A stretch of DNA of 64,000 nt from an uncultured Acidimicrobiales bacterium (GCA_963697385.1 CAVONU010000004.1:963915-1027914), one strand, 5' to 3'; positions 7,825 through 60,518 are shown, numbered from the stretch's first letter. Program-made: numbers and translations. Notes: generated by a model from the letters alone, not told the origin.

Positions 7825-8541
7825 TCAGACCGCAGCGCGGACCAGGGCGGCGACGGCGGCGAGTGCCGACAGGGCGAGCACGGCGGATCTCGTGTACCCG
7901 CGGTCCAGGAACCGGGCCACCCTCCCCGAGAGCAGCAGGCCGATCACCGTCCCCGGGACCAGGGCCAGGCCCCGACCGACGTCGGCCGTGCCCATCTCGC
8001 CGAACAGCGCCAGCGCCACGAACGAGAACCCCACGCCGACGGCGAAGAAGCGGGCCAGCGTGCGGCGGACGACCGGACCCTCGGACGATTGCATGACCAG
8101 CGCCATGGGCGGACCGCCGACGGCGATCGACGTGGCCGTGAACCCCGACGCCAGGCCGCCACCGAACAGATTCGCCCGGGTGGGGCTGACGTGCACGCCC
8201 GAAGCCGAGATGGCGACCGCCACCAGGATCGCCGTGGCGAAGAACCAGGTCAGTGCGTCGGTGCTCAGCGCCGCGACCAGCGCCGCTCCCAGCAGTGAGC
8301 CGGGAACACGGCCGACGAGCGCGGGTACGACGCGGGGCCAGTCGCCTTCGCCCGGCTCGCGGACGATCATCATCAGGTTGAGGGCCAGCGCACCGATCAG
8401 GGCCGGGCCCGGGATCAGTTCCGGGTCGAGCAGGACCAGCACCGGCACGGCCAGCAGGTTGCCGCCGAATCCGATGCCGCCCTGCACGATCGACCCCACC
8501 AGCATCGCGGCGTTGGCCAGGACCCACTCGAGGAGACTCAC
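7825..8541 (-). CDS. TauE/SafE (DUF81) family anion exporter
   Basis: Multi-pass membrane protein. N-terminal IVQGGIGFGGNLLAVP and a second-half repeat GGGLASGFTATSIAVGGPP. Confidence 0.8.
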   Translation of the reverse strand: MSLLEWVLANAAMLVGSIVQGGIGFGGNLLAVPVLVLLDPELIPGPALIGALALNLMMIVREPGEGDWPRVVPALVGRVPGSLLGAALVAALSTDALTWFFATAILVAVAISASGVHVSPTRANLFGGGLASGFTATSIAVGGPPMALVMQSSEGPVVRRTLARFFAVGVGFSFVALALFGEMGTADVGRGLALVPGTVIGLLLSGRVARFLDRGYTRSAVLALSALAAVAALVRAAV

Positions 8542-13911: not shown

Positions 13912-15011
13912 GTGTCGTCGCGTCATCCGGCCTGCCGGTCGCTCTCGCTCTGGTGATCGCCGTGGTGCTGCTCGCCGCCAACGCGTTCTTCGTCGCGGTC
14001 GAGTTCGCCCTCATCGCCGCGCGTCGCGGCACCCTCGAGGCGCGCGCCGCCGAGGGGAATCGTCGAGCCCGCGCCGCGCTTGCCGCCGTCCGCGACGTCA
14101 ACCTCCAGCTGGCGGGCGCCCAGCTGGGCATCACCATGGCCAGCCTGGGCCTGGGGTTCGTGGCCGAGCCTGCGATCGAGTCGTGGATCGAGCCGCTGCT
14201 CGACGGGATCGGGCTACCGCACGGGGCGGTGCCGGGCATCGCGTTGGCCATCACGCTCTTCCTGGTGACGACGCTGCACATCGTGCTGGGCGAGATGGTG
14301 CCCAAGAATCTGGCCATCGCCGGCCCTGAACGCACGCTGCTCGCACTGGCGGGCCCGTACCGGCTGTACGTCATGATCGCCCGGCCGTTGATCGCGGTGA
14401 CCAACGGCGCGGCGCGGGCCGTGCTCTGGGTCATCCGGGTCGAACCGCGGGACGAGCTCAGCGAGGTGCACACCGCTGATGAGATCGCGTCGATGGTCGG
14501 ATTGTCCCGCGACGAGGGGATCATCGAGGACTTCGCCCACTCCCTGATGGCCGGAGCACTCGATCTGGGCCGGCGCCCCGTGAGCTCGGTGATGATCCCG
14601 TACACCGAGGTCGTGACGGTGCACCGCTGGCAATCGGTCGAGGAGGTCGAGCGGGTCATCGTCACCAGTGGTCACAGCCGCCTCCCGGTCATCGGGCACT
14701 CGATCGACGACGTCGACGGGTTCCTCCACGCCAAGGACATGCTGCAGCTGCCCGAGGTGGCGCGTCAGCATCCCGTTCCGCTCTCGATCGTCCGCCGGAT
14801 GCCGGTGGTGCCGGTCGACGCCGCGCTCGAGGACGCCCTCCGCACGATGCGCCGGTCGCGGCGCCATCTGGCCGTCGTGCGGGATACCGAGGGTGCCACG
14901 GTGGGGTTGCTCTCGCTCGAGGACGTGCTCGAAGCCCTGGTCGGCGACATCCAGGACGAGTCCGATCGTCCCCGGGTCCGCCGCCTCGGCTTGGCGGCCA
15001 ACCGACCCTGA
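13908..15011 (+). CDS. CNNM/DUF21-CBS domain protein (paralog, no obvious CorC_HlyC tail)
   Basis: ATGA overlap with the upstream stop. [16 protein letters not shown], then CBS pair ([26 protein letters not shown]). Confidence 0.85.
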
Positions 15012-35012: not shown

Positions 35013-35199
35013 AGGAACGCTGCGGAGCCGCCAGGTGGAGCAGCGGTGGGGGTGGGACCCGGATGGCGAAGCCGGCGCAGCGGATTATCGCTGCGCCAGG
35101 GAGGACCGTTAGGAACGCTGCGGAGCCGCCAGGTGGAGCAGCGGTGGGGGTGGGACCCGGATGGCGAAGCCGGCGCAGCGGATTATCGCTGCGCCAGGG
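35013..35199. repeat. 98-bp-period tandem duplication: two identical 89-bp copies separated by 9 bp, each with a 9-bp-stem hairpin
   Basis: 35013-35101 equals 35111-35199 (89/89). GGCGCAGCG-GATTAT-CGCTGCGCC at 35074-35097 and 35172-35195. Fills the whole spacer between convergent stops at 35012 and 35203. Confidence 0.95.
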
Positions 35200-43568: not shown

Positions 43569-44632
43569 TGTTCTCCAAGTACTACCGCGGCGACGCCAAC
43601 ATCGACTTCAAGAAGCTGTGGCCGAAGGCCCTCGCTCTCTCGCTGTTGCTGGTGACACTCAGCGTCGGTTCGTTCTTCGTGCGCGGTCTCAACCTGGGGA
43701 TCGACTTCGAGGGCGGCGGTGTCTGGGAGGTCCCCGACGAGACCAGCTCCGTGTCCGATGTCCGCGACGCCCTGCCCAGCGGAAAGCAGGACGCCAAGAT
43801 CCAGGTCGTGACCGGCACCGAGGGCCGGCGCATCCGCGTGCAGTCCGACCTCGAGGAACTGGGACCCGAGTCCGAGTCCGTCACTCTGGCGCTGGCCGAT
43901 CAGGCCGGCGTCGACCCCGGCGAAGTGAGTGTCAGCCTGGTGGGTCCGTCGTGGGGCGAGGAGATCACCAGACGGACCTTCGAGTCGCTGGTGGCGTTCT
44001 TCGTGCTGGTGGCGATCTACATCGCATGGCGCCTGGAATGGAAGATGGCCGTCGGCGCGCTGGTCGCAGTGGCCCACGACATCATCATCTCGGTGGGCGT
44101 CTACTCGATCTTCCAGCTCGAGGTCACGCCGGCCACCGCCATTGCCTTCCTGACCATCATGGGCTACTCGCTCTACGACACGATCGTCGTCTACGACAAG
44201 GTCCGGGTGAACGAGGCTCGGGTGGGCCACAAGGGCCGTCACACCTACGCCGACCTGATGAGCTTGTCGATGAACCAGGTCATGATGCGCTCGATCAACA
44301 CGACGTTCACGTCGGTGATCCCGGTCCTGTCGATGCTGCTGGTGGGGTCGCTCCTGCTGGGCGCCGCAACCCTCCAGGAGTTCTCGGTGGCGCTGCTGAT
44401 CGGCTTGTTGGTCGGTGGCTACTCGTCGATCTTCGTCGCGGCACCGGTCGTCGTCGCCCTCAAGGAGCGCGAGCCCCGCTACCGCGAGGCGAAAGCCAAG
44501 GCCAAGGCCACCGGCGAGGCCGAGTCCATCGTGACCTCCACCTCGGACGGCGACGACCGCACCGCACCGAGCCCTGCGGCCGGAGGGACGCTCATCCAGC
44601 CCAAGGCCCGCAAGAAGGGCCGGCGGCGCTAG
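43568..44632 (+). CDS. secF: protein translocase subunit SecF
   Basis: NLGIDFEGG, RLEWKMAVGALVAVAHDIIISVG, YSLYDTIVVYDKVRE-like segment, SINTTFTS. Confidence 0.9.
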   Translation: MFSKYYRGDANIDFKKLWPKALALSLLLVTLSVGSFFVRGLNLGIDFEGGGVWEVPDETSSVSDVRDALPSGKQDAKIQVVTGTEGRRIRVQSDLEELGPESESVTLALADQAGVDPGEVSVSLVGPSWGEEITRRTFESLVAFFVLVAIYIAWRLEWKMAVGALVAVAHDIIISVGVYSIFQLEVTPATAIAFLTIMGYSLYDTIVVYDKVRVNEARVGHKGRHTYADLMSLSMNQVMMRSINTTFTSVIPVLSMLLVGSLLLGAATLQEFSVALLIGLLVGGYSSIFVAAPVVVALKEREPRYREAKAKAKATGEAESIVTSTSDGDDRTAPSPAAGGTLIQPKARKKGRRR

Positions 44633-44723
44633 GGCGGGGAGCCGTGGATCGGTGTCGGATCCGCCTGGGTACGCTGATCGGAGCATGATGGTCGAGACCT
44701 CCCTCCTGGACGAGCGCTGAACG

Positions 44724-46949
44724 GTGGCCACCGTCACCCGCGTCCTGCCGTGGCGCCGCAACGCCGACCCCGCCGCCGTTCAGGTTGCTCCGCTGGTGGC
44801 GGCGTTCCGCGCCCATCACGGGCACAAGCCCGACGACCGGATCGAGCGGGCCTATCGGTTGGCGTCGGAGGCGCACGAAGGCCAGTTCCGCAAGTCGGGT
44901 GAGCCGTACGTGCATCATCCGCTGGCGGTGGCCCACATCGTCGCCCAGCTGGGTCTGGACGAGACCACCATCGCTGCGGCGCTGCTCCACGACTCGGTCG
45001 AGGACACCGGCATCGAGCTCGACGACCTGCGCCAGCAGTTCGGTGACGACCTGGCCGAAATCGTCGACGGAGTCACCAAGCTCGAGCGGGTCAAGTTCGA
45101 CACCAAGGAGGCGCAGCAGGCCGCCACCATGCGAAAGATGCTGGTGGCGATGGCCAAGGACCTGCGGGTCATCATCATCAAGTTGGCCGACCGACTCCAC
45201 AACCTGCGGACCATCGCCGCCCTGCCCGACTGGAAGCAGACCCGTACCGCCCACGAGACCCTTGATGTCTATGCGCCGCTGGCCCACCGGCTGGGCATGC
45301 AGGAGATGAAGACCCAGCTCGAGGATCTGTCGTTCGCGGCCCTGCACCCCAAGCGATACGCCGAGATCGATCACATGATCCAGACCCGGTCACCGGAGCG
45401 CGACCTCTACGTCGAGCAGGTCGTGGGCATCGTGCAGGAGCGGCTGGCGCAGAGCAACGTCGATGCCGAGGTGACCGGTCGGCCCAAACACCTCTGGAGC
45501 ATCTACGAGAAGATGGTCGTGAAGGGTCGGGCCTTCGACGACATCTTCGATCTCGTCGGGATCCGGATCATCGTCTCGAACCTGCACGGCTGCTACGGGG
45601 CGCTCGGCGCCATCCACGGCCTCTGGAAGCCGGTTCAGGGCCGGTTCAAGGACTACATCGCCCACCCCAAGTTCAATCTGTACCAGTCCCTGCACACGAC
45701 GGTGATGGGGCCGCAGGGCAAGCCGCTCGAGGTGCAGATCCGCACCTCCGAGATGCACGGCCGGGCCGAGTTCGGGGTCGCGTCGCACTACGCCTACAAG
45801 GACAGCGACGTCACCGCCGACGGCACCTGGTTCGACCGCATCCTCGAGTGGGAGTCAGAGACCGAGGACCCCGGCCACTTCATGGCGAACCTCAAGCTGG
45901 ATCTGGACCAGGACGAGGTCTTCGTCTTCACCCCCAAGGGCGAGGTCGTGACCCTTCCCGTCGGGTCCACGCCCATCGACTTCGCCTACACGATCCATAC
46001 CGAGGTGGGTCACGCCTGTATCGGCGCCCGGGTGAACGGTCGGCTGGTCCCCCTGGAGACACAGCTGGTGTCGGGTGACACCGTCGAGATCTTCACGGCC
46101 AAGGGGCACGCCGGCGGGGGACCGTCGAGGGACTGGCTGGACATGGTGGCCACCCACCGGGCGGCCAACAAGATCAAGCAGTGGTTCTCGCGGGAGCGTC
46201 GTGAGGACATGGTGGCCGCAGGCCGCGACGACGTGATCAAGGCGATCCGTCGCGAAGGACTGCCGGTCCAGCGGATCACCAAGGGTCCGATGATGGCGGA
46301 CCTGGCCGAAGGCCTGAACTACGCCGATGTCGAGGCGCTGTTCGCCGCCGTCGGTGAGCGTCATGTGTCGGCCAACTCGGTCGCCGCCCGCGCGGCGAAG
46401 GCGCTTCGGGGCGGTGAGGACGGGAGCGAGGAACAGATCCCCACGACCGCCCGATCTCCCCGGAAGGGCCGACGGACCCGAGCCACCACCCACGGGGTGC
46501 ACGTCGAGGGCCTCGACGACCTTCTGGTGCGGCTCTCCAAGTGCTGCACGCCGGTGCCGGGGGACGAGATCATCGGTTTCGTCACCCGCGGACGGGGTGT
46601 CTCGGTGCACCGGGCGGACTGCGCCAACGCCGTCTCGCTCAGCGACGGGCAGGCCGATCGGGTCATCGACGTCGAGTGGGACGACGACAGCGAGGGAACG
46701 TTCGTGGCGTCGATCGAGATCAAGGCGCTTGACCGCTCCGGCCTCTTGGGTGACGTCACCACCACGCTGACCGATCATCACGTCAACATCGTGGCCGCCA
46801 ACACCGCCACCGGCGGCGACCGGGTGTCGACGATGCGGTTCGAATTCGAGCTGGGCGACCCCGGCCATCTCGACTCGCTGATCGCCGCGGTCAAGGGCAT
46901 CGAGAGCGTCTACGACGCGTACCGGGTGGTGCCGGGCAAGGGCGGGTGA
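44724..46949 (+). CDS. relA: bifunctional (p)ppGpp synthetase/hydrolase (long RSH)
   Basis: HD domain HHPLAVAHIVAQLGLDETTIAAALLHDSVEDT, synthetase RPKHLWSIYEKM...DLVGIRII...YQSLHTTV, TGS (VFVFTPKGEVVTLP), C-terminal ACT-like domain ending YDAYRVVPGKGG. Confidence 0.95.
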   Translation: MATVTRVLPWRRNADPAAVQVAPLVAAFRAHHGHKPDDRIERAYRLASEAHEGQFRKSGEPYVHHPLAVAHIVAQLGLDETTIAAALLHDSVEDTGIELDDLRQQFGDDLAEIVDGVTKLERVKFDTKEAQQAATMRKMLVAMAKDLRVIIIKLADRLHNLRTIAALPDWKQTRTAHETLDVYAPLAHRLGMQEMKTQLEDLSFAALHPKRYAEIDHMIQTRSPERDLYVEQVVGIVQERLAQSNVDAEVTGRPKHLWSIYEKMVVKGRAFDDIFDLVGIRIIVSNLHGCYGALGAIHGLWKPVQGRFKDYIAHPKFNLYQSLHTTVMGPQGKPLEVQIRTSEMHGRAEFGVASHYAYKDSDVTADGTWFDRILEWESETEDPGHFMANLKLDLDQDEVFVFTPKGEVVTLPVGSTPIDFAYTIHTEVGHACIGARVNGRLVPLETQLVSGDTVEIFTAKGHAGGGPSRDWLDMVATHRAANKIKQWFSRERREDMVAAGRDDVIKAIRREGLPVQRITKGPMMADLAEGLNYADVEALFAAVGERHVSANSVAARAAKALRGGEDGSEEQIPTTARSPRKGRRTRATTHGVHVEGLDDLLVRLSKCCTPVPGDEIIGFVTRGRGVSVHRADCANAVSLSDGQADRVIDVEWDDDSEGTFVASIEIKALDRSGLLGDVTTTLTDHHVNIVAANTATGGDRVSTMRFEFELGDPGHLDSLIAAVKGIESVYDAYRVVPGKGG

Positions 46950-47104
46950 GCTACGACCAGGTCACCGTGGCCCGCCCCACCGACGCCCTGGAGGCCGCGA
47001 TCGACGGCAATCTTCCTGGCCGAGGCCGCCTGTCGAGTTCGGCCGAGCCTGCCTTTGCCCCGGTGCTAGCTTGGCTCGCGGTCCGCTAGTGGGGGTATGG
47101 GATA

Positions 47105-47635
47105 GTGCGAGTTCGGGTCTCTGTTGTGTTGCTGGCCGCCGCTGTGGTCCTCGTCGGTGCGTGTTCGGACGATGACGACGACACCGACGGGGCGGCAACG
47201 ACCACGACCACGACCAAGACCGAGGCCACCACTGCCAGCGGTGACGACGGTGGTGGCGGATCGGTCAGCGTCGTGCTGGCGGACCCCTTCGCCGGGCGGG
47301 TGGAGTTCGCCGTGGAACCGGATCCGTCGTCGGCCGTGGCTGGCAAGGTCGAGCTCGTGGCCGAGAACGTGGGCGGGGACGTTCACGAGTTGGTGATCGT
47401 GAAGGGTGACGATCCTGCGTCGCTTCCGGTTGACGGAAACGGCGTGGTGATCGAGGACGATCTCCCCGCGGGCGACTTTGTTGGCGTGATCCCACTGGTC
47501 GATCCCGGTGCCGAAGCGTCGGCGTCGTTCGATCTCGATGCCGGGAGTTACATCCTCTTCTGCAACATCTTTACGCTCGGAACCGGCGACAGCCACTTCC
47601 AGGAAGGCATGGTGAGCACTTTCACCGTGACCTAA
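47105..47635 (+). CDS. lipoprotein with cupredoxin_1-like domain (cassette 1)
   Basis: GTG 47105. Lipobox VLVGACS, acidic/Thr linker. Candidate type-1 Cu ligands DVHELV ... SYILFCNIFTLGTGDSHFQEGM. Confidence 0.6.
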   Translation: MRVRVSVVLLAAAVVLVGACSDDDDDTDGAATTTTTTKTEATTASGDDGGGGSVSVVLADPFAGRVEFAVEPDPSSAVAGKVELVAENVGGDVHELVIVKGDDPASLPVDGNGVVIEDDLPAGDFVGVIPLVDPGAEASASFDLDAGSYILFCNIFTLGTGDSHFQEGMVSTFTVT

Positions 47636-47718
47636 CCGATCCTGGACGGGCTCGGCGAACTGCTCGGCTCCACCAGCCCGCGGAGAGATCCGAATCGCCA
47701 TGGCCATCCAGTAGGGAC

Positions 47719-47872
47719 GCGTTGACCGGGACTCGCCCCGGGCGTCGAGAGGATAACTGTGGGCACAGCGCTCTCCTCGCCACCGCGCCACGCCTGGGAT
47801 GTCCGGGATGAGCACAGCGCATACCCCCAGATAGACGACGCGTATCGGGTGGTGCCGGGCAAGGGCGGGTGA
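47719..47872 (+). repeat. relA-3'-end repeat unit A (arm plus 36-nt core 47837-47872)
   Basis: Core GACGCGTATCGGGTGGTGCCGGGCAAGGGCGGGTGA is 35/36 identical to relA 46914-46949. Arm ATAACTGTGGGCACAGCGCT...GAGCACAGCGCATACCC is shared with units B and C. Confidence 0.9.
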
Positions 47873-48003
47873 GCGCAAGCCCTGACCTCCCTTAGGGTTC
47901 TCGCCGGGTTGCTCGTCGGCAGGATCGAGCACAGCGCTCGTCGAGGTGATACTTGCGGGAACAGGCACCTAGCCGATCGTCTTGCGGGTCAAGTGGAGCG
48001 CGA

Positions 48004-48537
48004 TCAAACCAATGTCCCGTCGGCGGCTGCCAGCCTCGATGAGTTCCAGGTAGTCCAGCTAGCCGGGGGTGGTGACGTATGAAGGACCTGGATCTCGAGC
48101 AGCTCGCTTTCCGGGGCGTGAACTGCGGCCTGACGGGCGTCGAGCTCCGCCCGGACGCGGATGATGAGCTCGTCGAGCGTCGCCTGGGCGATCACGGGAT
48201 CGCGGTCGGACACCTCGACCAGCATCAGAGGGTCCTTGTCGTCGACGGTGATGGTGTAGTCGGGGGAGAAGCCGGCGGCCTCGAGCTCGGCGCGGACCTC
48301 CGCGGTGCCGACGATGAGCGCGAGGTTGGCGAGGGTCGCCTGGCGCGGGACGGTCGGCCCGTCAGCCGACCCGCTCTGGAAGAGGACGCCGTCGCTGGCG
48401 GCGATCACCATCGACGCGCTGGCCCGATAGTCGCGGTCGCCGCGACCTGCGACGAACATCGCGGCGAGCGCGAAGCCGGCCAGGACGGGTACGACGATGT
48501 ACCAGCGCCGCCCGAGCGCCTTCGCCGACTCGCTCAT
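48004..48537 (-). CDS. hypothetical membrane-anchored protein, possibly a truncated Wzz/chain-length-determinant-like N-terminal half (cassette 2)
   Basis: ATG 48537. MSESAKALGRRWYIVVPVLAGFALAAMFVAG (N-terminal TM), then a soluble alpha/beta-looking region. No second TM, and the C-terminal ~25 residues look like junk. Confidence 0.45.
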   Translation of the reverse strand: MSESAKALGRRWYIVVPVLAGFALAAMFVAGRGDRDYRASASMVIAASDGVLFQSGSADGPTVPRQATLANLALIVGTAEVRAELEAAGFSPDYTITVDDKDPLMLVEVSDRDPVIAQATLDELIIRVRAELDARQAAVHAPESELLEIQVLHTSPPPASWTTWNSSRLAAADGTLV

Positions 48538-48646
48538 GTCCACTGTGATCCCGTCGCTCAGAGTGGTGTGACTACTCGTACCTAAGGCAGATCGCCGGGG
48601 CACCCGCAAACCTGCCGGTGCCCCGAGGGTACCCGCAGGGGTGAAG

Positions 48647-48869
48647 GGTGGGCCCTCGCCCCCGGCCAACCGGGACTAGCGAGTGGCACCGCAACTGGTC
48701 AGCGTCGTCTGCCTGCGGGCTTTCGCTGCACAACCACCTAGTTCGGCAGGGGCCTGAATGGCGGGCCCGCCGACGCGTTCATGTCGCCATGTCGCTCGGC
48801 GGGTCCCGCCTCAGGTCGGTGGTGGCTCCCAGTGGTGCCCCTCGCCCCCGGCCACCCGGGACCAGCGAG
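48647..48869. repeat. pair of ~36-bp direct repeats 187 bp apart inside a 460-bp non-coding stretch
   Basis: GGTGGGCCCTCGCCCCCGGCCAACCGGGACTAGCGAG (48647-48683) versus GGTGCCCCTCGCCCCCGGCCACCCGGGACCAGCGAG (48834-48869). Confidence 0.8.
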
Positions 48870-48928
48870 CCGTCGGCCGGTCCAAGAGGCCACGGCTGTC
48901 ACGCGATGAGGTCAACGTGCCGTCAGGG

Positions 48929-49120
48929 GCGTTGACCACCGTCTCCTGCTCGTCCTCGCCGACACGATGAGCACGCTCGCCCGGACCGGGCGTCGAGCGC
49001 ATAACTGTGGGCACAGCGCTCGCGCGGAAACCCGCTCAGGTAAGGCAAGTCGGTGGTGGGCACAGCGCACACCCTCAGATAGACGACGCATACCGAGTCG
49101 TGCCCGGCAAGGGCGGGTGA
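48929..49120 (+). repeat. relA-3'-end repeat unit B (arm plus 36-nt core 49085-49120)
   Basis: Core GACGCATACCGAGTCGTGCCCGGCAAGGGCGGGTGA is 32/36 identical to relA, and all 4 differences are synonymous third positions. The arm is as in unit A, with a ~45-nt insertion after GCGTTGACC. Confidence 0.9.
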
Positions 49121-49332
49121 CCAGCCACCAGCTGTCGCTGGAGAGCCGGTACGATTCCCGCCCGAATCACCGGCGACCGCCGGTCCCACCACCGACTCGG
49201 GAGCTCGCCCTCGGGATCGTCCCCCTCCTCCCCCCGTGACCGCCGGGCTCATCGACCGACGAAGCCGCTCCCCGAATCCCGACCGATCGGCTGACCCACT
49301 AAGTCTCGGAGAGCTCTCATGACTCGTACAGG

Positions 49333-49854
49333 ATGATGACCGAGGACTTCGATACCTGGTATGCCGACCTCCGCCCCGCGATGGGTGTCGCGTTGGCCGC
49401 GTGGTGCGGCGACGCGTCGGTCGCCGCGGACGCGCTCGACGAGAGCTTCGCCAGGGCGATCGAACGGTGGGACCGGGTGCGTCGCCTCGATTCGCCGGCC
49501 GGTTGGGTCTGGCGGACGGCCACCAACATCGTGCGTCGCCGTGAGCGTCGCCATGCGATGGAAGCACGTCTCCTTCGACGCCAGTCGTCACCGGACGCGG
49601 GTGCACCCGATCGTGTCGAAGACGATCTCGACCTGCGCCAAGCCCTTCGCGCCCTGACCGAGCGGCAGCGTACGGCCGTTGTCCTGTACTACGTGGCTGA
49701 TCTTCCGGTCGCCGAGGTCGCGCTCGCCATGGGTGTGGCCGACGGCACGGTGACCGCCACCCTGCACCAGGCGCGCCAGCGCCTGAACGACGCACTCGTT
49801 CCCGCTCCATCCGGCGCACCAGTCACCGTCACCTCCGAGGGAATGGACCCATGA
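49333..49854 (+). CDS. ECF (group IV) RNA polymerase sigma factor (cassette 3)
   Basis: Region 2-like DALDESFARAIERWDRV...AGWVWRTATNIVRRR and region 4 LTERQRTAVVLYYVADLPVAEVALAMGVADGTVTATLHQARQRL. Confidence 0.85.
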   Translation: MMTEDFDTWYADLRPAMGVALAAWCGDASVAADALDESFARAIERWDRVRRLDSPAGWVWRTATNIVRRRERRHAMEARLLRRQSSPDAGAPDRVEDDLDLRQALRALTERQRTAVVLYYVADLPVAEVALAMGVADGTVTATLHQARQRLNDALVPAPSGAPVTVTSEGMDP

Positions 49855-51137
49855 CAAACCTCGAAGAACGTCTCCGCTCGTTGCGGACCACCACGGTCCC
49901 GCCCGGCCCGGAGCCCCACGTCCTCCAGGCGACAGCCGATGGCCGGCGCCGCCGCCGACGGCTCGCCGCAGCCGGCTGGGTCGGCGCGATCCTGATCGCA
50001 ACGGTCGCAATACTCGGATCGCTCGATGCTGACGACAAGGTGCGGGTGGTCGGCGACCAGCCTCCGACCTCGGACGAACCGTCGCCTGGCGAAACGCCGG
50101 CGGTGCGGACCCTCGGCGGACTCGAAGGCGTCACGGTCGAAGTCGATCCGACCCGTGATCTCCTCGATGGCGCGACGCTGGACATTCGGATGTACGGCCT
50201 CGACCGGCTGACGGATCCGACCATCGTGCTGTGCGCGGGCGACGTCCGGGAGGACACCGTCTCGGACCGGTGCGAACTCCGACCGCTCGACCGCCTGTCG
50301 ACCAGCGACAGCTACGTCGAGGTCGCAGCTCGTCGAACGGTCGAGGCGCGACGCGTGATCCACCTCGCCGAGCCGTTCGACTGTGCGACTGAACCGGCGG
50401 GCTGCGTCCTGGCGGTCGGCAACAATGACCTCCCGGCCCGGGCCGTGCTGACACCGCTGACCTTCCGCCCGGTCCCAATGCCCGAGCCGGTGGTCTGGGT
50501 GGAGCCCGACAGCGGGCTGCACGATCTCGATCCAATCACGGTCCGCGCCACGGGTCTCCGGGCCGCCAGCTCGTACTCGATCCAGATCTGCACTGCGGGC
50601 GAGGACAGCGTGTGTGACCACGTCACCGATTCCGCCAGGTTCGACGAGCAGGGAAACGTGGAGACCGACACGTTCGTCCGCGCCGCCCTGTACACCGAGA
50701 AGGGCCGAATCGACTGCACCGCCAGGCCTTGCGTGGTCGCCCTGAGAGAGGACTTCGACCGTCCGGCAGTCGCGACGCCGATCACCTTCGCCGAAGATGC
50801 GGTCGCGCCCGTTCCTGCCCTCGAGCTCGATCCCCCCGGGCCCTACGTCGACGGCCAGACGATCACGGTGCGGGGTTCGGGCTTTCTCCCCGGGTTCGAC
50901 CTCACCGCGAAGATCGGACAATGCCCGGCCGACAAGGACACCGCGGTCGAGCTGAGGTGCGAGCCCATTCTCGAGAAGATCATCGTGGACGCCGACGGTC
51001 GCTTCACGACCCAACACACCCTGTCGGAGACCTTGATGGTCACCGACTCGTGCACCGATGAGCCGGGTTGCGTCCTCGGCTGGGTCCTCCACCACGGTCC
51101 CATCGTCGCGATCGCCGAGCTCACGTTCGAGGACTGA
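49851..51137 (+). CDS. single-pass membrane protein (anti-sigma position) with three extracytoplasmic 4-Cys, neocarzinostatin-like domains
   Basis: ATGA overlap with the sigma gene. RRRRRRLAAAGWVGAILIATVAILGSL TM. Three ~100-aa repeats, each with two Cys pairs (for example C..GEDSVC ... DCTARPC; QC...LRC ... SCTDEPGC). Confidence 0.6.
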   Translation: MTNLEERLRSLRTTTVPPGPEPHVLQATADGRRRRRRLAAAGWVGAILIATVAILGSLDADDKVRVVGDQPPTSDEPSPGETPAVRTLGGLEGVTVEVDPTRDLLDGATLDIRMYGLDRLTDPTIVLCAGDVREDTVSDRCELRPLDRLSTSDSYVEVAARRTVEARRVIHLAEPFDCATEPAGCVLAVGNNDLPARAVLTPLTFRPVPMPEPVVWVEPDSGLHDLDPITVRATGLRAASSYSIQICTAGEDSVCDHVTDSARFDEQGNVETDTFVRAALYTEKGRIDCTARPCVVALREDFDRPAVATPITFAEDAVAPVPALELDPPGPYVDGQTITVRGSGFLPGFDLTAKIGQCPADKDTAVELRCEPILEKIIVDADGRFTTQHTLSETLMVTDSCTDEPGCVLGWVLHHGPIVAIAELTFED

Positions 51138-51369
51138 CCGGGGCGGTCTCCTTCGGGGTCCGCCGGCAGAGTTGACCGGCCATCGTCGAGGCGATCTGCG
51201 TGATTCGATGGCGGTGATCAGGGGTGAGTCGGGTCCGCGGCGTGTGCGACCTCTCCGGGGCTGATGGAGGGAGGCGTGGGGTGTGGCGCGGCTCGGGTAC
51301 CCTGCTCTCGGAACGAGGCGGATCGGATCGCGAGGAGCGCACGTTGGCGGCGACAGTGGATTCGCCTGC

Positions 51370-52266
51370 ATGGCGATAGGGACTCGATTCAACGACGTCC
51401 AGTCGTTCGACGGAACGAGCCTGGCCTGGACCTCCTCCGGTGACGGCGACCTCGCCGTGGTCCTGGCCAACGGAATCGCCTGCACCGACACGTACTGGAC
51501 CTTCCTCTACCCCTACCTCGCGGAGCGCGGGCACAAGGTCGTCTTCTGGGACTACCGGGCGCACGGGCGCTCGGGGCTTCCGGTGAACCCCAACGAGATC
51601 ACGCTCAGCTCCCACGCCCGCGATCTCCTGGCCGTCGCCGGCGCCGCCGGAGTGGAGCGCGCGGTCCTCGTCGGTCACTCGATGGGAGTGCAGACAATCC
51701 TCGAGGCGTATCGCATGTCCCCTTCACTCGTCGCCGGCCTCATTCCGGTCGCGGGCCCCTACGAGCACCCGGCGAAGACGCTCTACGGACAGCCGATCTG
51801 GCAGTATCTCTTCCCGTTCATGGAGCTGTCGGTGATGCCGGTCCCGTGGCTGACCAGGGCGGCGTGGCGTTCGCTCACCGAGCAGGGCGACCTCATGTAC
51901 TGGTCGGGACGCATGGGACGGCTGATCGGTGGAAGAGCCTCCAGGGAGCTGATGGCCGAGTATTTCGCTCACCTCTCGGAGCTCGACCCGCTGATCTCGT
52001 TCCGGATGGCCAAGGCGATGGGGGATCACTCAGCGAAGGACCTCCTTCCCGAGATTGAGGCGCCGACGCTCGTCCTGGCCGGGGCCAAGGACGTGATGAC
52101 GCCCCCGATGGTGGCCGAGGAGATGGCGGAGAGCATCCCGAACGCCCGCCTCGAGATCCTCTCGAAGGGGTCGCACACCCTGCCCATCGATGAGCCGAAC
52201 CGCGTCAACCGCCTCGTCGAGGAGTTCGTCACCGAGGTCGAACAGGCCGAACGCGCGCGCATGTGA
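51370..52266 (+). CDS. alpha/beta-fold hydrolase (cassette 3)
   Basis: ATG 51370. WDYRAHGRSG, nucleophile elbow GHSMG, C-terminal GSHTLPIDEP. Confidence 0.8.
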   Translation: MAIGTRFNDVQSFDGTSLAWTSSGDGDLAVVLANGIACTDTYWTFLYPYLAERGHKVVFWDYRAHGRSGLPVNPNEITLSSHARDLLAVAGAAGVERAVLVGHSMGVQTILEAYRMSPSLVAGLIPVAGPYEHPAKTLYGQPIWQYLFPFMELSVMPVPWLTRAAWRSLTEQGDLMYWSGRMGRLIGGRASRELMAEYFAHLSELDPLISFRMAKAMGDHSAKDLLPEIEAPTLVLAGAKDVMTPPMVAEEMAESIPNARLEILSKGSHTLPIDEPNRVNRLVEEFVTEVEQAERARM

Positions 52267-52398
52267 GCGGAGACTGCCCCCTCGCAGCGCCCCGCAGCGG
52301 CGCGATCAGCCAAGTCCCGTCGGAGCCGTTGAGCGGCTTCCTCGCATGTGGCCGCAGCCGGGGTGGCTGGCGAGATCTCGACCGATCCTCGCGCCGAC

Positions 52399-52516
52399 AA
52401 CTGTGGGCACAGCGCTTGGGCGGAACCCCGATCTGGCAAGGGGAGTCGGGGGTGTGCAGAGCGCACACCCCGGGATGGGCGACGCGTACCGGGTGGTGCC
52501 GGGCAAGGGCGGGTGA
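52399..52516 (+). repeat. relA-3'-end repeat unit C (arm plus 36-nt core 52481-52516)
   Basis: Core is 36/36 identical to relA 46914-46949. Arm AACTGTGGGCACAGCGCT...GTGCAGAGCGCACACCCC. Perfect hairpin GGGGTGTGC-AGAGC-GCACACCCC at 52449-52471. Confidence 0.9.
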
Positions 52517-52649
52517 CCGCGATCCATTGCCCTGCCTCGGGAATGGCCTGGCTGCCTCGCGCCGTCGGGACGCGGACCTTTGCCCCTGGGAGTGAACGCC
52601 TACCTGCGGGAAGATGGTGGGTGCCACCGATCATGGGAGGGGGTCGAGG

Positions 52650-53255
52650 GTGCGTTGGGTTGCCATCGTCCTCGCTGTGGTGCTCGTTGCCGCCTCGTGT
52701 GGAGACGACGACGATGAGGCGAACACCTCCACGACGACGACCGAAGCCGCTGCCACCGACTCGACGAGTCCGACAGAGCCGCTCGAGACGACCGCGACCG
52801 GAACGATCAACCTCTCGGTGCAGGACTGGGCGGGCGTGAGTGGGTATCGGCTACTGGCCGGGGTCCGGACCGGGGGCGATGCGGGTGAGATCGTCGGCGG
52901 GGCGTTCTGGACGATCATCGACAGCGACCCATTCTCCGGCGAAGACGTCGTGCACCCGGCGTACCACGGCGACGTGGAGCCAGAAGGCGCCGAGACCTGG
53001 GCGGAGGGCGACTACCTCTGGGACGAAACGGCGCTTCTCGAGCCCGGCACCTACGTGATCGATTTCTGGGCGAACCCCGGAGAGCTTGCGCCCTACGGGA
53101 GCCACCTCCCCGCCGAACCCATCGAGCGTCGGTGCTGGGTGGAGGTCCGGGTCGAAGCCGGCGAAGCGTCGACCGTCATTCTCTCGGAGATCCCCGCGCC
53201 AGCGACGAGCTCAGGAGCCCCTGAATTCGAGCGATGCCCGATGGTGGACTCGTAG
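52650..53255 (+). CDS. hypothetical lipoprotein
   Basis: GTG 52650 after a GGGAGGGGG RBS-like run. Lipobox LVAASCG, acidic/Thr linker. No recognised domain. Confidence 0.55.
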   Translation: MRWVAIVLAVVLVAASCGDDDDEANTSTTTTEAAATDSTSPTEPLETTATGTINLSVQDWAGVSGYRLLAGVRTGGDAGEIVGGAFWTIIDSDPFSGEDVVHPAYHGDVEPEGAETWAEGDYLWDETALLEPGTYVIDFWANPGELAPYGSHLPAEPIERRCWVEVRVEAGEASTVILSEIPAPATSSGAPEFERCPMVDS

Positions 53256-53404
53256 AGGCGTCGGCGACATCGTTGGGCAGTGGAGGTTGGGGGAGTGATG
53301 GGGCTTCTGGCTCGGGACGTACCCCTGGAGGCGATGTCCTGCCGGACGGGGAGTGATAGGGGAGCGTCGTCGTGCCCGGCACGGGTGGCCGAGCCGGATC
53401 CCGC

Positions 53405-54442
53405 CTACTTACCGCGGTAGGGAGCCGGGCCGCGGTAGTTGTTGAACGCGTCGCCGGCCAGGACGACGGTCTTCTCGGCGGGGTCGTCCGGGTCGTAGGA
53501 CACGATCTCGTTGCCGCCTACGTTGGTCCGCGCCACGACGATCTGGTCATCGGTGACCCACGACGGCTCCGAGTAGCCGGCACCCGGCAGGCCGGAGCCG
53601 TCGGCGGTTCGCGCCGAGTTGGCGCCGTCGAGATCGCCGACCGCGTTGTCCCAGTCCAGAACGCCGACCATGCGGAGCGCCGCCAGGCGCATCCCGTTCG
53701 GGCTCACGTACGGATCCCAGTCGCCTTGTTCGGGCCGGCCCTGGGCCGAGTCGTCGGAGAGCTGGGTTTGGCCCGAGCCGTCGCTGTTCATGATCCACGG
53801 CTCCTGGCTCGCAAAGCCGATGCCGTCGTCGATGCGAATGAAGACGATCCGACCATCCGGGTGCCACGAGGGGTCGATGCTGTACTGCGTGCCGTCGGTG
53901 AGGCGAGTGTGGCCGGTGCCGTCGATGCGACACTTGTGGATCGAGAAGCTCGCCTCGCCGGTCACCCGCGCCGCGAAGACGAACTCCGTTCCGTCGGGGC
54001 TCCACTCGAGGTGGCCCCAGTCCACGTAGTCGAGCTCCTTGTTCTGCTCATCGCCCGGCGTCAGCGACAGAATTCGGGATGGGTTCGATCCGTCGATGTC
54101 TGCGATCCAGAACTCGTCCACGAGGTTGCCGGTGTGGCCCTTCACGTCCGACGCGTAGAGGATCTGCGACCCGTCCGGAGATGGCCGGGGCCAGTGATAC
54201 CGACGCTCTCCGAACGACTGAAGCGCCACGGGAGGCGACGAGCCATCGATGGGGGCGACGCCGATCACCGATCCGTCGCCTGCCGCGTCGTTCGTGAACC
54301 ACTCGAACGCGATCATGTCCGCGGCCCGAGCCGGCGGTGCCGACGTCGTGCAGGATGTCGCCACGATCGCCAGAGCGCCGAGCACTGCCATCGCCAGCGA
54401 CAGCAGCGGCCTCCGACCGACCGTCCGTACCAGGATCCCCAT
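53405..54442 (-). CDS. TolB-like (PD40/WD40-like) beta-propeller lipoprotein
   Basis: ATG 54442. Signal/lipobox LGALAIVATSCT. Repeated PSPDGSQILY, WSPDGTEFVF, PSWHPDGRIVF, VSPNGMRLA blades. Confidence 0.75.
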   Translation of the reverse strand: MGILVRTVGRRPLLSLAMAVLGALAIVATSCTTSAPPARAADMIAFEWFTNDAAGDGSVIGVAPIDGSSPPVALQSFGERRYHWPRPSPDGSQILYASDVKGHTGNLVDEFWIADIDGSNPSRILSLTPGDEQNKELDYVDWGHLEWSPDGTEFVFAARVTGEASFSIHKCRIDGTGHTRLTDGTQYSIDPSWHPDGRIVFIRIDDGIGFASQEPWIMNSDGSGQTQLSDDSAQGRPEQGDWDPYVSPNGMRLAALRMVGVLDWDNAVGDLDGANSARTADGSGLPGAGYSEPSWVTDDQIVVARTNVGGNEIVSYDPDDPAEKTVVLAGDAFNNYRGPAPYRGK

Positions 54443-54549
54443 CACTCCGACCTCCGACCGCGCACGCTGCTCCGAACCCACAGCGTCGGACGTTCCTCGC
54501 TCTCGTTGAGGAGACATGGATCGATTCCTCCTCCGGGTGGACGGTGCCG

Positions 54550-55464
54550 TTACCGGTCGAGGGCAGCGAAGAAGACCATCAGGGTCGTGCCGAGCTTGTG
54601 GGTCTCGGCAAAGGTGAGGTCGTAGTACTGGCTGAGCCAGTCGAGGGCGTGCCGCTCGTCGGTGGTCCACACCGAGGTGTAGCTGACCGGACCGGACACG
54701 TCGGGCCGAGGCCGCAGCGGATCGGATCCCGTGGTCCCGGCGATGCCGTGGATGAACCGCAGGGCCATGATCCCTGTCTTCTGGAGCTGGTCCCGGGGGA
54801 TGCCCCAGTGCCGGGCAGCGAAGATCAGGTTGGCGTGCTCGGCCTGCGTGTACGCGGTCGTCACCTCCGACATGGGAGGAATGGCAACCGGCAGCGAGGA
54901 CACGGTGCGTCGGGTCCGCTGATCGGTGATGACCACGTTGATCCGGGCAGGGGCGGCATGCCCGATGGGCTCGATGAACGAGAGATCGCGCAGGCCCTCG
55001 GGCGTGCCGATGGCACAGAACTGACCGCCGCGGAGCCGACGTCCGGTGTCCGCGTCGTAGAGTTGTACCCGGGTCCGAAGTTCTCTGCAGACACCGAGGT
55101 TCTTCCACCGGGCGAACAACTCGGGGTCGTACGACTCCCAGTTGGACACATCGAACTCGTGGCGGACGTACCAGCCGCTTGGCGTGGAGTAGGCCTTCCG
55201 TCCGGTGAACGTGACCGTGGGGGCAGGCAGGGCAGGGGGACGGGCTCGTCCGGGGTCGACCTTGCCCGGGGGCAGCTCCTCCGCCCCGCAGGTCACGATG
55301 TTCAGGCACGGCTCGGGGCGTGGGATCGGCGTCGATTCCGCGGCGCTGGCCGCCGGGATCGCCGTGGCGATCACTGCGACGACCATGCCCAGACCGACGA
55401 GGGCTCGCCTGAGCACCCCTCCGGTCCGGGTCGTCTCCTGCTCGGCTGCGCTGGTCGTCGACAT
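54550..55464 (-). CDS. hypothetical secreted protein (Tat-like RR signal)
   Basis: LRRALVGLGMVVAVIATAIPAASA signal. Cys-containing mature part. No family recognised. Confidence 0.5.
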   Translation of the reverse strand: MSTTSAAEQETTRTGGVLRRALVGLGMVVAVIATAIPAASAAESTPIPRPEPCLNIVTCGAEELPPGKVDPGRARPPALPAPTVTFTGRKAYSTPSGWYVRHEFDVSNWESYDPELFARWKNLGVCRELRTRVQLYDADTGRRLRGGQFCAIGTPEGLRDLSFIEPIGHAAPARINVVITDQRTRRTVSSLPVAIPPMSEVTTAYTQAEHANLIFAARHWGIPRDQLQKTGIMALRFIHGIAGTTGSDPLRPRPDVSGPVSYTSVWTTDERHALDWLSQYYDLTFAETHKLGTTLMVFFAALDR

Positions 55465-55659
55465 CGTGGTTCCTCTCGAAGGGCGTGATCGCCGGTCTCG
55501 GCGGGCTCACCACCTTTGATGCGGGGAGGGGCGGTCGAGTTCGCGGAGACTCTCGATCCCTGTCCGGTGGCTGATCACCTGCGGCCCGGCATCCGGACGG
55601 GTCGCCGGCCCCGTACACCTGATGGAGCCCGTCCATCGGCGTCTCGAAGGAGCCCGAGA

Positions 55660-56070
55660 ATGTTCAGCCGAACACACCCCATCCTCAAGATCCCCTCCCC
55701 CTCGTTTGCCGGCCTCCCGGCCGCCGAGCTGGAGATCCTCGACCACAACTCCACGATGCTGTCGATGGGGACCGGTCGGGTGGTGCTCCGGCAGGGAGAA
55801 TGGGGCCGCGAGGTCTTCGTGGTCTTGAACGGCGAAGTGCAGGTGGAGCGCGACGGTGCGCCGGTCGCCCGCCTGGGCGCTGGAGCGGTCGTGGGAGAGC
55901 TGGCACTGCTGCACAACACACCTCGGAACGCCACCATCCGCACCACGACGGAGACGGCGGTGCTGGTGCTCAACCGACGAGAGCTCGCCACCGTGATGGG
56001 CCGCTGTCCCACGTTCGCAACCCGGATGACGACCGAAGCCGACTCGAGGATGCTGGACGTCGCCGCCTAG
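55660..56070 (+). CDS. stand-alone cyclic nucleotide-binding (CAP_ED) domain protein
   Basis: ATG 55660. VVLRQGEWGREVFVVLNGEVQVERDG...LGAGAVVGELALLHNTPRNATIRT, the cNMP phosphate-binding cassette pattern. No output domain. Confidence 0.75.
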   Translation: MFSRTHPILKIPSPSFAGLPAAELEILDHNSTMLSMGTGRVVLRQGEWGREVFVVLNGEVQVERDGAPVARLGAGAVVGELALLHNTPRNATIRTTTETAVLVLNRRELATVMGRCPTFATRMTTEADSRMLDVAA

Positions 56071-56822
56071 CGGTATGCCGCCGCGTCGGCTGAACGGAGT
56101 TCGGTCGCCTCATCGAGGAGCGTGACCATCCGCTCGCGAACCCTTGCGGTATCGGCCGCCGGGTCGCCGTCGGTGGCGGTCAGGTGGTCATCGCCCAGCA
56201 CCAGCACGTGATGGCGCCGACGAGGGTTGATCCCGAATCGTGGATACCGCTTGCCTTGGGGCCACACGAGATCCGTTCCAACCAGTGCGAGCGGCCAGAT
56301 CCCCACGTTGCAGTGGTCCGCCAGGCGGGCGGCGCCAGTCTTGAATCGACCGAGGCTCGTCGGATCTCCTCGGTCGCCCGACAGGACACCTTCGGGCATC
56401 ACGAGGATCGGAATGCCGGCGCCGAGCACGCGGCGGGCGCCTTCGAGATGGACGGCGGCGTCGTTTCGGTCCATCGGGATCGCTCCCGCCGAGCGGAGCA
56501 GCATGCCGATGAAGCGACGATCGAACCAATGCGCGGCCACGATGACCCGCGGATATCGGCCCAGCCGGTGAAAGACGACGAGGCCGACGATCGCGTCGAA
56601 GAAGCTTCGGTGATTGGCGACCACCACGGCGGTGCGGTGTCGTTCGGCGATCTGGAGATGACGCGCATCGATGTGAACGAACGGCTTCACCAGCAGCGTC
56701 ACGAGCATGGCCACGATGCGATAGGCCCACGGGCCTTCTCGCGGAGCTCGCTGCTCGGCCGCTTCTCCGTGCTCGTCGCCGGCCCGGCGAGCCCACGGAA
56801 CTCGTCCGTGCTGAGCACCCAT
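56067..56822 (-). CDS. lysophospholipid acyltransferase family protein (PlsC-like)
   Basis: HX4D motif NHRSFFD and MPEGVLS. The stop shares the CTAG at 56067-56070 with the convergent gene. Confidence 0.75.
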   Translation of the reverse strand: MGAQHGRVPWARRAGDEHGEAAEQRAPREGPWAYRIVAMLVTLLVKPFVHIDARHLQIAERHRTAVVVANHRSFFDAIVGLVVFHRLGRYPRVIVAAHWFDRRFIGMLLRSAGAIPMDRNDAAVHLEGARRVLGAGIPILVMPEGVLSGDRGDPTSLGRFKTGAARLADHCNVGIWPLALVGTDLVWPQGKRYPRFGINPRRRHHVLVLGDDHLTATDGDPAADTARVRERMVTLLDEATELRSADAAAYR

Positions 56823-56973
56823 TGCGCCGACGCTACACCTCGCGCTTCGCTGCCCCGCTCCGCATCGGGTGGGAGGCGTTCGAACCGGTCGACGTCCTTC
56901 CCTTCGATGACGAGCCGGACCTCGAGGACGCCCTCCGAGGGGTCGTCGCCGTCCGGGCTGACTCAGGCCGTGG

Positions 56974-59281: not shown

Positions 59282-60418
59282 TCAGCTCGACGAGCCGAGC
59301 GACGCGGCGAATTCCTTCTGAACGTGTGACATGCCCGCAACGTCGAACGCCCCGGGGGAGCCCGCCCTGACGGCGCGATCCGACTTCGGGTCGAATCCCA
59401 ACTCCGCTCGGACCTCATCGACGGGGCGGTCGGCGAACGCGTGGTAGTCGACCTCGAGGAGGTCGTTCCCCAGTCGATCGCACAGGACCCGGCCGCGCCT
59501 CAGAGCGTCAGCGATCCGGATGTGCATGTCGGGGCTGTCGAGTCGACGCTCCTGGAGGTCACCGGTGAAGAACCCCGCATCGGCCACGTACCCCGTCTCG
59601 AACAGGCCGACGAGGGTGGCGAGCCATGCGAAGCCCTTCGGGTCGGGGTCAGCCCTTCCGATGAGCGCAAAGACCTCGAACTCGCCATTCAGATTGGTTC
59701 CATAGTCGGCCAACACATGCACGAAGTCATGCTGGGCGAGATAGGCCGACGCCCCGCCGATGGATCCCGGGAGGCCGAAGCCCCGACTCCGGTACATCTC
59801 CCACACCGACCGGCCGAGCGTTTCGCGAGGCAACTCGGCGAAGGCGAGCCACCGCTCGGCCAGCGGCGCATCCTCGACGCCGGCCGACAGCTGGTGTTCG
59901 AGCCGGACGCTCGTCTTGAGCTGGTCCATCCGGGCCATTTCCCAGTGCTCGGCGAACCCGCTGTGATGCAGATCGAGCCAGGCGAGGCCGAACCCTCCCT
60001 GCGCGTAGCGTCGTGCGACTCGGACGAACTGGTCGTCGACCCCCATGGCCCGCGCGTAGGCGGCGACCCGGCGAGCGACGACCGGCGGGATCGGGCGAAG
60101 GATCAGCTCGCCCAACACCATGAGATGGGCAACCCGCCGGCGGAAGTCTTCAGGACGGTCGGTGAGGGCATCGGCGAGCGACTCGGCGGACAGCGGATCG
60201 AGGGAGCCGAGGTCGGCGGAGACATCCACGAGCGCCTCCAAGACCGCCTGCAGGAGGCTGATCTGCACGGGCTCCAGTCCACCCTCGGGTTCGACTGCGG
60301 TCGCGACACCGCGTGCGATGAGTGTCCCTTCGTCGACCGGGACGGTCCCGCCCGGTGAACCTGCTGCACCCACGTCGCCCCCCGTCAGCGGTGGAATCTC
60401 CTGTTCCATCACGAGCAT
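59282..60418 (-). CDS. hypothetical protein with Coq4-like HDxxH-x11-E motif
   Basis: ATG 60418. AQHDFVHVLADYGTNLNGEFE matches the Coq4 family zinc-ligand motif HDxxH(x)11E. Confidence 0.5.
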   Translation of the reverse strand: MLVMEQEIPPLTGGDVGAAGSPGGTVPVDEGTLIARGVATAVEPEGGLEPVQISLLQAVLEALVDVSADLGSLDPLSAESLADALTDRPEDFRRRVAHLMVLGELILRPIPPVVARRVAAYARAMGVDDQFVRVARRYAQGGFGLAWLDLHHSGFAEHWEMARMDQLKTSVRLEHQLSAGVEDAPLAERWLAFAELPRETLGRSVWEMYRSRGFGLPGSIGGASAYLAQHDFVHVLADYGTNLNGEFEVFALIGRADPDPKGFAWLATLVGLFETGYVADAGFFTGDLQERRLDSPDMHIRIADALRRGRVLCDRLGNDLLEVDYHAFADRPVDEVRAELGFDPKSDRAVRAGSPGAFDVAGMSHVQKEFAASLGSSS

Positions 60419-60518
60419 AGGACTTCCCGCCGGTCGCTCGGTTCGCTCGTCTCTGCCCGCCGGGAACGGCCCGACCGCGCCAGCGCCGGATCGTCGCAGG
60501 CCTGGCAGAATCGGGTCC

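Follow-up and report, generated by a model that had tools for sequence, protein, structure and literature searches.

Displaced copies of the relA 3' end as probable attR-type junctions of small gene cassettes in an uncultured Acidimicrobiales bacterium

We analyzed a 64,000-nucleotide stretch of DNA from an uncultured Acidimicrobiales bacterium (here called the window) in which the end of relA recurs downstream of the gene. A repeat search of the window found the relA 3' end in four copies (family D5; Table 1), and alignment showed that each of the three displaced ends is preceded by a segment without counterpart in relA. We consider it probable that the resulting units are attR-type junctions, each composed of an element arm and a core, of small cassettes inserted site-specifically into the last 38 bp of relA. 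The evidence comes from the fixed anatomy of the units, from the position of breakpoints between strains, from the turnover of the cassettes, and from the pattern of substitutions in the arm and in the carried gene ends.

The units of the window constitute a gap-free repeat family of three 139-nt copies with 77 to 81% identity. Each unit carries two GGGCACAGCGC-like motifs, here named X1 and X2, and the geometry given for them in the initial annotation was exact on recounting: in each unit, 49 nt separate the starts of the two motifs, and the second motif starts 27 nt before the core, counted to GACGCGTA, in 3/3. The 9-mer GCACAGCGC occurs seven times in the window versus 1.38 ± 1.22 times in shuffled sequences, with 0/100 shuffles reaching seven, and six of the seven copies are within the array, every one on the + strand.

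Table 1. Features of the relA array, with positions counted from the first nucleotide of the window
Feature	Position	Strand	Remarks
relA, bifunctional (p)ppGpp synthetase/hydrolase, intact, target gene	44724..46949	+	Pfam HD_4, RelA_SpoT, TGS, ACT_4
Core at relA itself, attL-like, ACGACGCGTACCGGGTGGTGCCGGGCAAGGGCGGGTGA	46912..46949	+	Reference copy of family D5
139-nt repeat family, three copies	47736-47874, 48984-49122, 52380-52518		
Cassette A, 923 bp	46950..47872	+	99.4% identical to L016
Cassette A cargo: lipoprotein-like ORF, 176 aa	47105-47635		90.6% identical to L017 1736-2149
3' remnant of sulfatase gene in cassette A	47689-47713		
Unit A arm (P arm, short form)	47719..47834	+	
Unit A arm: GCGTTGACC	47719-47727		
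Unit A arm: Y CGTCGAGAGGATA	47743-47755		
Unit A arm: X1 GGGCACAGCGC	47761-47771		
Unit A arm: X2 GAGCACAGCGC	47810-47820		Followed by AGATAGAC
Displaced relA end, copy 1	47835..47872	+	TAT for TAC, synonymous
Cassette B, 1248 bp	47873..49120	+	
P' arm of cassette B	47873..48005	+	~75% homology to sequence after the L016 unit and after relA in L015 and L014; includes a degenerate X
Cassette B P' arm: X3 GAGCACAGCGC	47927-47937		
Cassette B P' arm: Y CGTCGAGGTGATA	47939-47951		
Cassette B cargo: membrane-anchored ORF	~48004-48537	-	No Pfam family
Unit B arm (long form)	48900..49082	+	
Unit B arm: far-5' hairpin block	48900-48937		GGTCAACG..CGTTGACC
Unit B arm: degenerate X	near 48959-48971		
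Unit B arm: Y	48991-49003		
Unit B arm: X1	49009-49019		
Unit B arm: X2	49058-49068		
Displaced relA end, copy 2	49083..49120	+	Four substitutions, all synonymous
Cassette C, 3396 bp	49121..52516	+	Pfam
Cassette C: ECF sigma factor	49333-49854		Pfam
Cassette C: putative anti-sigma/neocarzinostatin-like protein	49851-51137		Pfam
Cassette C: alpha/beta hydrolase	51283-52266		Pfam
Unit C arm (long form)	52299..52478	+	
Unit C arm: far-5' block	52299-52334		
Unit C arm: X1	52405-52415		
Unit C arm: X2 GTGCAGAGCGC	52454-52464		Within perfect 9-bp dyad 52449-52471
Displaced relA end, copy 3	52479..52516	+	Last 36 nt as in the gene copy; first base G for A
Variable region past the last unit	52517..56966		Lipoprotein-like ORF, PD40 beta-propeller protein, cNMP-binding protein; ends at DUF2505 gene, where synteny with L014 resumes (56966)

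Upstream of the array lies a conserved block, ruvCAB-queA-tgt-yajC-secDF-relA. A phosphoribosyltransferase gene, apt, is located between secF and relA in the related sequence L014 (9468-10001) and is absent from the window (44633-44723), L015, and L016. The closest RelA proteins are those of uncultured Acidimicrobiales, and the nearest cultured organism is Actinomarinicola tropica (72%). In relatives with 72% relA identity, relA is followed by one to three genes and hisS, with no repeats; L014 (relA 89% identity) has no units, and the contig L015 (relA 94%) ends 208 nt after relA.

A few other features of the window deserve mention. The stretch between the anti-sigma and hydrolase genes of cassette C (51171-51290; GTTGACCGG..CGTCGAGGCGAT..GAGTCGGG) resembles a decayed unit, and cassette C may be a fusion of two cassettes; as a fourth unit this stretch was rejected, its alignment being only ~2.6 sd above shuffles and not significant. 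A 1086-aa ORF (60120-63380), located in the variable region that separates relA from the expected hisS, combines an N-terminal TIR domain with WD40/beta-propeller repeats and has a defence-like look. A perfect tandem duplication at 35013-35199 (period 98, 1.9 copies, 100% identity), situated between a methyltransferase gene and an ABC-transporter operon, is single copy in the close relative L016. Two adjacent paralogous CNNM/CBS transporter genes (12616-13911 and 13815-15011) give several direct-repeat families.

We then looked for the units outside the window. The motif is not a common word: the 16-mer of motif 1 gave chance matches only in 185,579 reference genomes and IMG/VR, as did the arm/core junction pattern in reference genomes and viral contigs. 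A metagenome scan with motif 1 plus the relA end returned three matches, of which L011 and L012 are true units of identical length, while the third, L013, was rejected as a chance match within a glycine/lysine-rich coding region. A protein search with a unit translated in the relA frame led to a called 46-aa ORF (P0121) and from it to the contig L017 (10 kb), which has four full units and a partial, terminal one; a minus-frame chimeric protein query of the unit and exact-protein look-ups of two window cargo proteins gave no match. This amounts to nine independent full units (A, B, and C of the window, L011, L012, and four of L017), the L016 copy of unit A being extra. The family is known from one narrow lineage and five contigs, so that the statistics given here are those of 9 to 10 units.

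The 49/27-nt phasing turned out to be kept in the six further units (L011, L012, and four in L017). When the nine units and the L016 copy were stacked on the stop codon, zero indels were found from about -135 to +10, which bears out beyond the window the earlier claim of indel-free units. Among the nine units, the blocks of X1 and X2 had mean pairwise identities of 0.91 and 0.83, compared with only 0.66 for the 36 nt between the motifs and 0.96 for the first ten core bases. The 83 to 91% identity of X1 and X2 versus 66% between them, together with the lack of indels over 145 nt in nine units, points to selection on both sequence and spacing.

All X and Y copies are in direct orientation, the full site reading Y-X1-(37 nt)-X2-core-(~55 nt)-X3-Y and spanning 220 to 320 bp. 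The X1 consensus is TGTGGGCACAGCGCT, and the X2 region, exactly 49 bp after X1, has the consensus GnGCACAGCGCAyACCCC and is followed by AGATAGAC. The 5' part of the arm contains the Y motif CGTCGAGnnGATAAC, to which the long form adds a hairpin block (GCGCGATCAG..GGCGTTGACC) reaching to about -235. The 5' extension of the units had therefore been recognized correctly but drawn too short, and the comparison of units found indels of ~37 nt in this far-5' part. On the other side, ~15 bp are conserved after the stop codon in the P' arm, and an X3-Y module, GCACAGCGCT-CGTCGAGGnGATA, lies ~57 nt past the stop, with the companion motif CGTCGAGnnGATA beside the third motif copy. The module is present in the window (47927-47951), after relA in L015, and after units 1, 2, and 4 of L017; it is degenerate after the L016 unit and missing from about half of the P' ends, including those of cassettes A and C. 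The motif at 47927-47937, initially listed as an extra flanking copy, is real but belongs to this recurring module beyond the core, at about +57, and hence both arms carry sites.

Dyads of the core type were weak only, namely GCACACCCC/GGGTGGTGC, ~20 nt apart, plus an ACGCGT palindrome, and no convincing inverted core-type sites around a 6- to 8-bp overlap could be defined in the units. An imperfect inverted repeat extends across the relA stop (46936-46964), with GGCAAGGG at -14..-7 and CCnTTGCC at +8..+15; it is also seen at the matching positions of other junctions, the match being 7/8 in unit C and L012. In the alignment, one or two changes that look compensatory link the two bases at the center of the X1 palindrome (GG, AC, or GC) to the two bases right after TGA (columns 30/31 versus 142/141); as these positions fall in different cassettes under the crossover model described below, this may be due to chance.

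The same anatomy could be thought to describe a regulatory module, in which the arm would be a 3' element shared by the cassettes, a factor-independent terminator hairpin plus operators, that insulates or regulates the cassette genes and relA read-through, the motifs having no role in recombination. Indeed, the far-5' block forms a hairpin just past the cargo stop codons (GGTCAACG-N12-CGTTGACC in unit B), and both X1 (CTGTG-GG-CACAG) and the X2 region have the dyad form common in operators. However, promoter and terminator scans of 46800-53400 gave no match, the distance of the motifs is fixed to the crossover and not to any gene, the cargo orientation varies (minus strand in B, opposite to its unit in L011), and the displaced relA ends are left unexplained, all of which makes a regulatory role of this kind decidedly improbable.

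It had also been suggested that the unit is always open in the relA frame and could encode a micropeptide of ~37 aa, and that a hairpin is centered on the second motif; the unit would then be a small or antisense RNA to the relA 3' end or the gene of a peptide ending in DDAYRVVPGKGG. The frame is open in 7/9 units, and a pipeline called one 46-aa ORF over a unit (P0121), but L011 and unit 1 of L017 read CCC TAG ATA, and because of this in-frame TAG in 2/9 units the micropeptide reading fails. The variable sites of the arm are distributed 19/20/19 over codon positions 1/2/3, an even spread which argues that the arm is not selected as coding sequence. The hairpin fared little better: the dyad of a G-run and a C-run can form in 89% of the cells and is perfect in unit C, but it has zero double changes, hence no compensatory ones, and shuffled sequences do equally well. 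The covariation expected of a structured RNA did not appear, the RNAalifold covariation term being unfavorable on both strands (+0.5 and +1.27), and folding of whole units as single-stranded DNA gave z-scores of -1.55 to +0.73 on the two strands, no better than shuffles. Rfam gave no relevant match (E<=1), either for window positions 44000-56000 or for L011, L012, and L017, and a tRNA search found none. For the minus-strand transcripts suggested in the initial annotation, the promoter and terminator scans gave no match. A structured RNA or a coding role is thus largely refuted, and we assign it a very slight probability.

The folding results also bear on the idea that the units are attC sites, i.e., folded single-strand recombination sites of an integron-like system. 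The array is indeed made up of short cassettes that lack recombinase genes and close with a conserved site of ~140 bp. Yet the repeats are direct and do not follow the inverted R''/L''-L'/R' layout, which, together with single-strand folding no better than that of shuffled DNA, argues against an integron attC; moreover, no intI-like gene is adjacent, and the cassettes are of mixed orientation, some being multigene with their own regulator. The attC reading thus fails the defining features tested, having neither intI nor a folded inverted repeat, and we find it exceedingly unlikely.

The comparison of close strains was more informative. Cassette A is common to the window and L016 (RelA 99% identical in amino acids), and at 99.4% identity (99 to 100% along the cassette) it is more conserved than relA itself (~96%), which implies recent spread. 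Past cassette A the identity drops to 87% and then to 71% in the next two 100-nt bins, and the first differences between window and L016 are inside the core, right after GACGCGTA (TATCGG versus TACAGG). In the terminal unit of L017, X1 and X2 are kept, but the homology stops after ...CGCGT, with unrelated DNA beyond. These two observations, i.e., one strain pair with two differences in 4 nt and one terminal junction, locate the crossover to the first ~10 nt of the core.

The content of the array differs between close strains (window, L016, and L014). Cassette A is followed in the window by cassettes B and C, and in L016 by 8.7 kb of unrelated cargo that closes with a decayed unit. The cargo of cassette A recurs as the third cassette of L017 (90.6% identity), where it has a different arm and P' (left) end. 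The sulfatase 3' end found just upstream of unit A (47689-47713) belongs to a gene that is intact in L017, where the corresponding stretch is at 8445-8470; the arm of cassette A was therefore once in a sulfatase cassette whose cargo has since been replaced.

The carried gene ends behave differently from the arm. Among 13 copies of the last nine relA codons, there are eight variable sites, all of them synonymous (seven at position 3, plus CGG/AGG), and every copy translates to RVVPGKGG followed by the stop. This purely synonymous variation indicates that the carried ends have been selected as real relA termini.

One may ask whether the units are only relics, that is, passive scars in an array that changes solely by homologous recombination, with motifs devoid of present function. 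Homologous exchange could operate between repeats of 140 bp with ~80% identity, no recombinase was found, and some units have decayed (L016 21836-21923, the terminal unit of L017, and possibly window 51171-51290). Against this stand the contrast between the X1/X2 blocks and the sequence between them, the indel-free alignment of nine units over 145 nt, and a cassette A more conserved than relA between strains, and we therefore hold the relic reading to be improbable.

We thus favor the insertion of cassettes, which would proceed as follows. A small circular gene cassette would recombine site-specifically with the last 38 bp of relA through an attP-like site of ~220 to 320 bp, consisting of a P arm (in order, the optional far-5' hairpin block, Y, X1, X2, and AGATAGAC), a core with the same sequence as the relA end, and a P' arm. 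Strand exchange would take place within the first ~10 bp of the core, ACGACGCGTA, and with the crossover at that point the incoming cassette would supply fresh copies of the last nine relA codons and the stop. The old relA end would be pushed downstream, where it would now stand behind the P arm of the incoming cassette. Repeated insertion, excision, and exchange at any core copy would build and reshuffle the array, and may be doing so at present. The X and Y repeats, at their fixed distances from the crossover, would be binding sites on which the recombination complex is assembled; most likely, they are predicted sites for the arm-binding domain of the recombinase and/or for an accessory bending or directionality protein. 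The recombinase would be supplied in trans, since no gene for it was found among the scanned ORFs of the cassettes and the window. Our guess is that it is a heterobivalent tyrosine integrase, to which we would give a little less than an even chance. Counted against cassette insertion is the fact that neither an excised circle nor an empty-site junction was observed.

The search for the recombinase covered ~55 ORFs of the window and the scanned array ORFs of L011, L012, L016, and L017, and in neither set was there a Pfam match to a tyrosine or serine recombinase (Phage_integrase, resolvase). Likewise, no recombinase is on record among the called genes of L016 and L017, and an integration module is present in 0/11 cassettes (eight complete and three partial). 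The arm-type attP/attR reading proposed in the initial annotation is favored by the position of the arm, by the breakpoints at the left edge of the core, and by the motif on the other arm; the enzyme itself and its binding to the motifs we infer, as no recombinase gene was found in the window ORFs or the arrays.

The only recombinase genes that were found belong to the IS110 family, in L012 and in the window. L012 contains a complete IS110-family insertion sequence (~500-1860, with tnp at 791-1837 and a 5' leader of ~300 nt) between a cassette cargo gene and the arm. Its transposase (PF01548, 5.7e-19; PF02371, 7e-22) is on the same strand as the unit, ~340 nt upstream, and is the only recombinase gene physically linked to any unit. 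The window has a truncated IS110-family gene at 6045-6761 (ATG at 6166), in which DEDD_Tnp_IS110 (E 7e-33) is the only domain. At its 3' end, AAGATCGCTGCTTGACAA, it agrees with the end of the L012 gene, although the proteins are only ~25% identical.

According to the 2024 bridge-RNA and seekRNA papers, IS110-type enzymes reportedly use a two-loop guide RNA encoded beside the gene. Because of this use of guide RNAs, we considered whether the arm might encode such a bridge or seek RNA of an IS110/IS1111 (DEDD) element, the repeated motif making up the two loops and the cassettes being nonautonomous derivatives. The transposase linked to the L012 unit and the truncated gene of the window (6166-6761) speak for it. 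But the L012 gene and the window remnant both end in GCTTGACAA, which we take to fit a short right end with a -35 box, and the homology of L012 to other arms begins only at ~2091, ~250 nt past the gene, so that the insertion sequence appears self-contained, ~230 nt from the arm. In addition, the other cassettes have no homologue of it, the transposase being present in 1/11 only, the arm has neither covariation nor an Rfam match, and a duplicated gene end of 38 bp is not an IS110 insertion product. We accordingly set the guide RNA aside as very unlikely; the insertion sequence of L012 is most likely a passenger.

If the insertion model is true, uncultured marine or sediment Actinobacteria build an array of flexible genes with an integron-like outcome, in which a lambda-like site replaces attC. 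The cargo seen so far includes lipoproteins, an ECF sigma/anti-sigma pair, hydrolases, a sulfatase, and a STAND NTPase. As the site is in the coding end of relA, a stringent-response gene, every cassette must carry a correct spare end, in which selection acting on a recombination site can be read cleanly in nature. To find more cassettes and the missing recombinase in metagenomes, the conserved arm is a ready probe. A bolder proposal, possible but in our judgment rather unlikely, is that in this Acidimicrobiales lineage the relA 3' end is where cassettes dock in a platform that resembles integrons but arose independently of them; systematically nonautonomous cassettes, each with a double-stranded attP-like site of ~250 bp with arms and a spare relA terminus, would there be captured, stacked, and reshuffled by one unlinked recombinase, whose family might be an unexpected one.

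In the literature searched, relA is not described as an integration site, nor is a cassette array at the relA end. The nearest counterparts among known systems are the attP arms of lambda-type elements and the islands found in tandem at ssrA of Dehalococcoides. Lambda and mycobacteriophage L5 exemplify the heterobivalent tyrosine integrases, a type that includes integrases directed at the 3' end of a gene. Judged by its sequence, the layout at relA matches a lambda-type attP/attR in every testable feature except an adjacent int gene. As in lambda-type sites, a long core common to the target runs from the crossover to the gene end and restores the gene, here as a 38-nt block in the four window copies and all outside units; repeated arm motifs distinct from the core stand at fixed distances on both sides (X twice in the P arm, Y on both); and the site spans 220 to 320 bp. 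Williams 2002, on sublocations in tRNA and tmRNA genes, reportedly gives the general rule that, with integrases acting at gene 3' ends, the block of identity extends from the crossover as far as the gene end, and exchange in the first ~10 nt of the core fits it. Unlike lambda-type elements, the 11 relA cassettes have no adjacent int or xis and are cargo only (0.9 to 8.8 kb); the motif sequences at relA are new, core-type inverted repeats could not be defined, and the arm sites are predicted ones.

In Dehalococcoides, tandem islands at ssrA have repeats of the 3' end of that gene at their boundaries, and just upstream of each repeat there is a conserved motif that does not align with the gene (PMC3146451). 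Sixteen of these islands carry a serine-recombinase integration module, with a repeat of 20 bp and tmRNA as the target, and 15 have no integration module and were proposed to be cis-mobilizable (PMC3146451). The relA cassettes are similarly stacked downstream of a single-copy housekeeping gene and bounded by direct repeats of its 3' end, with a motif upstream of each repeat that is absent from the target gene. They differ in that all lack a recombinase, with no helper among the 11, in that the repeat is 38 bp long and is a protein-coding end kept synonymous, and in that the arm exceeds 135 bp and has phased repeats. Cis-mobilizable elements and accretion at ICE sites (PMC3146451) are likewise att-bounded, encode neither integration nor transfer, and lie in tandem at a gene 3' end, but in contrast to them no autonomous helper was seen in or beside the relA arrays.

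Integrons share with the relA array the recombinase-free short cassettes, each ending in a conserved site and stacked at one chromosomal locus. The relA array, on the other hand, has no adjacent intI or attI, its site is not a folded imperfect palindrome, the cassettes are of mixed orientation and have their own regulators, and insertion is inside the coding end of a gene. With a recombinase in 0/11 cassettes, the array is integron-like in organization and not in mechanism. In the Prochlorococcus tycheposons (bioRxiv 10.1101/2020.12.28.424599), successive integrations at the same site also push older elements inward and scatter partial target copies, but tycheposons carry tyrosine recombinases and target tRNA and tmRNA genes. 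What sets the relA system apart from the known ones is, then, its target in the coding end of relA, its long arm with phased repeats, and its recombinase-free cassettes.
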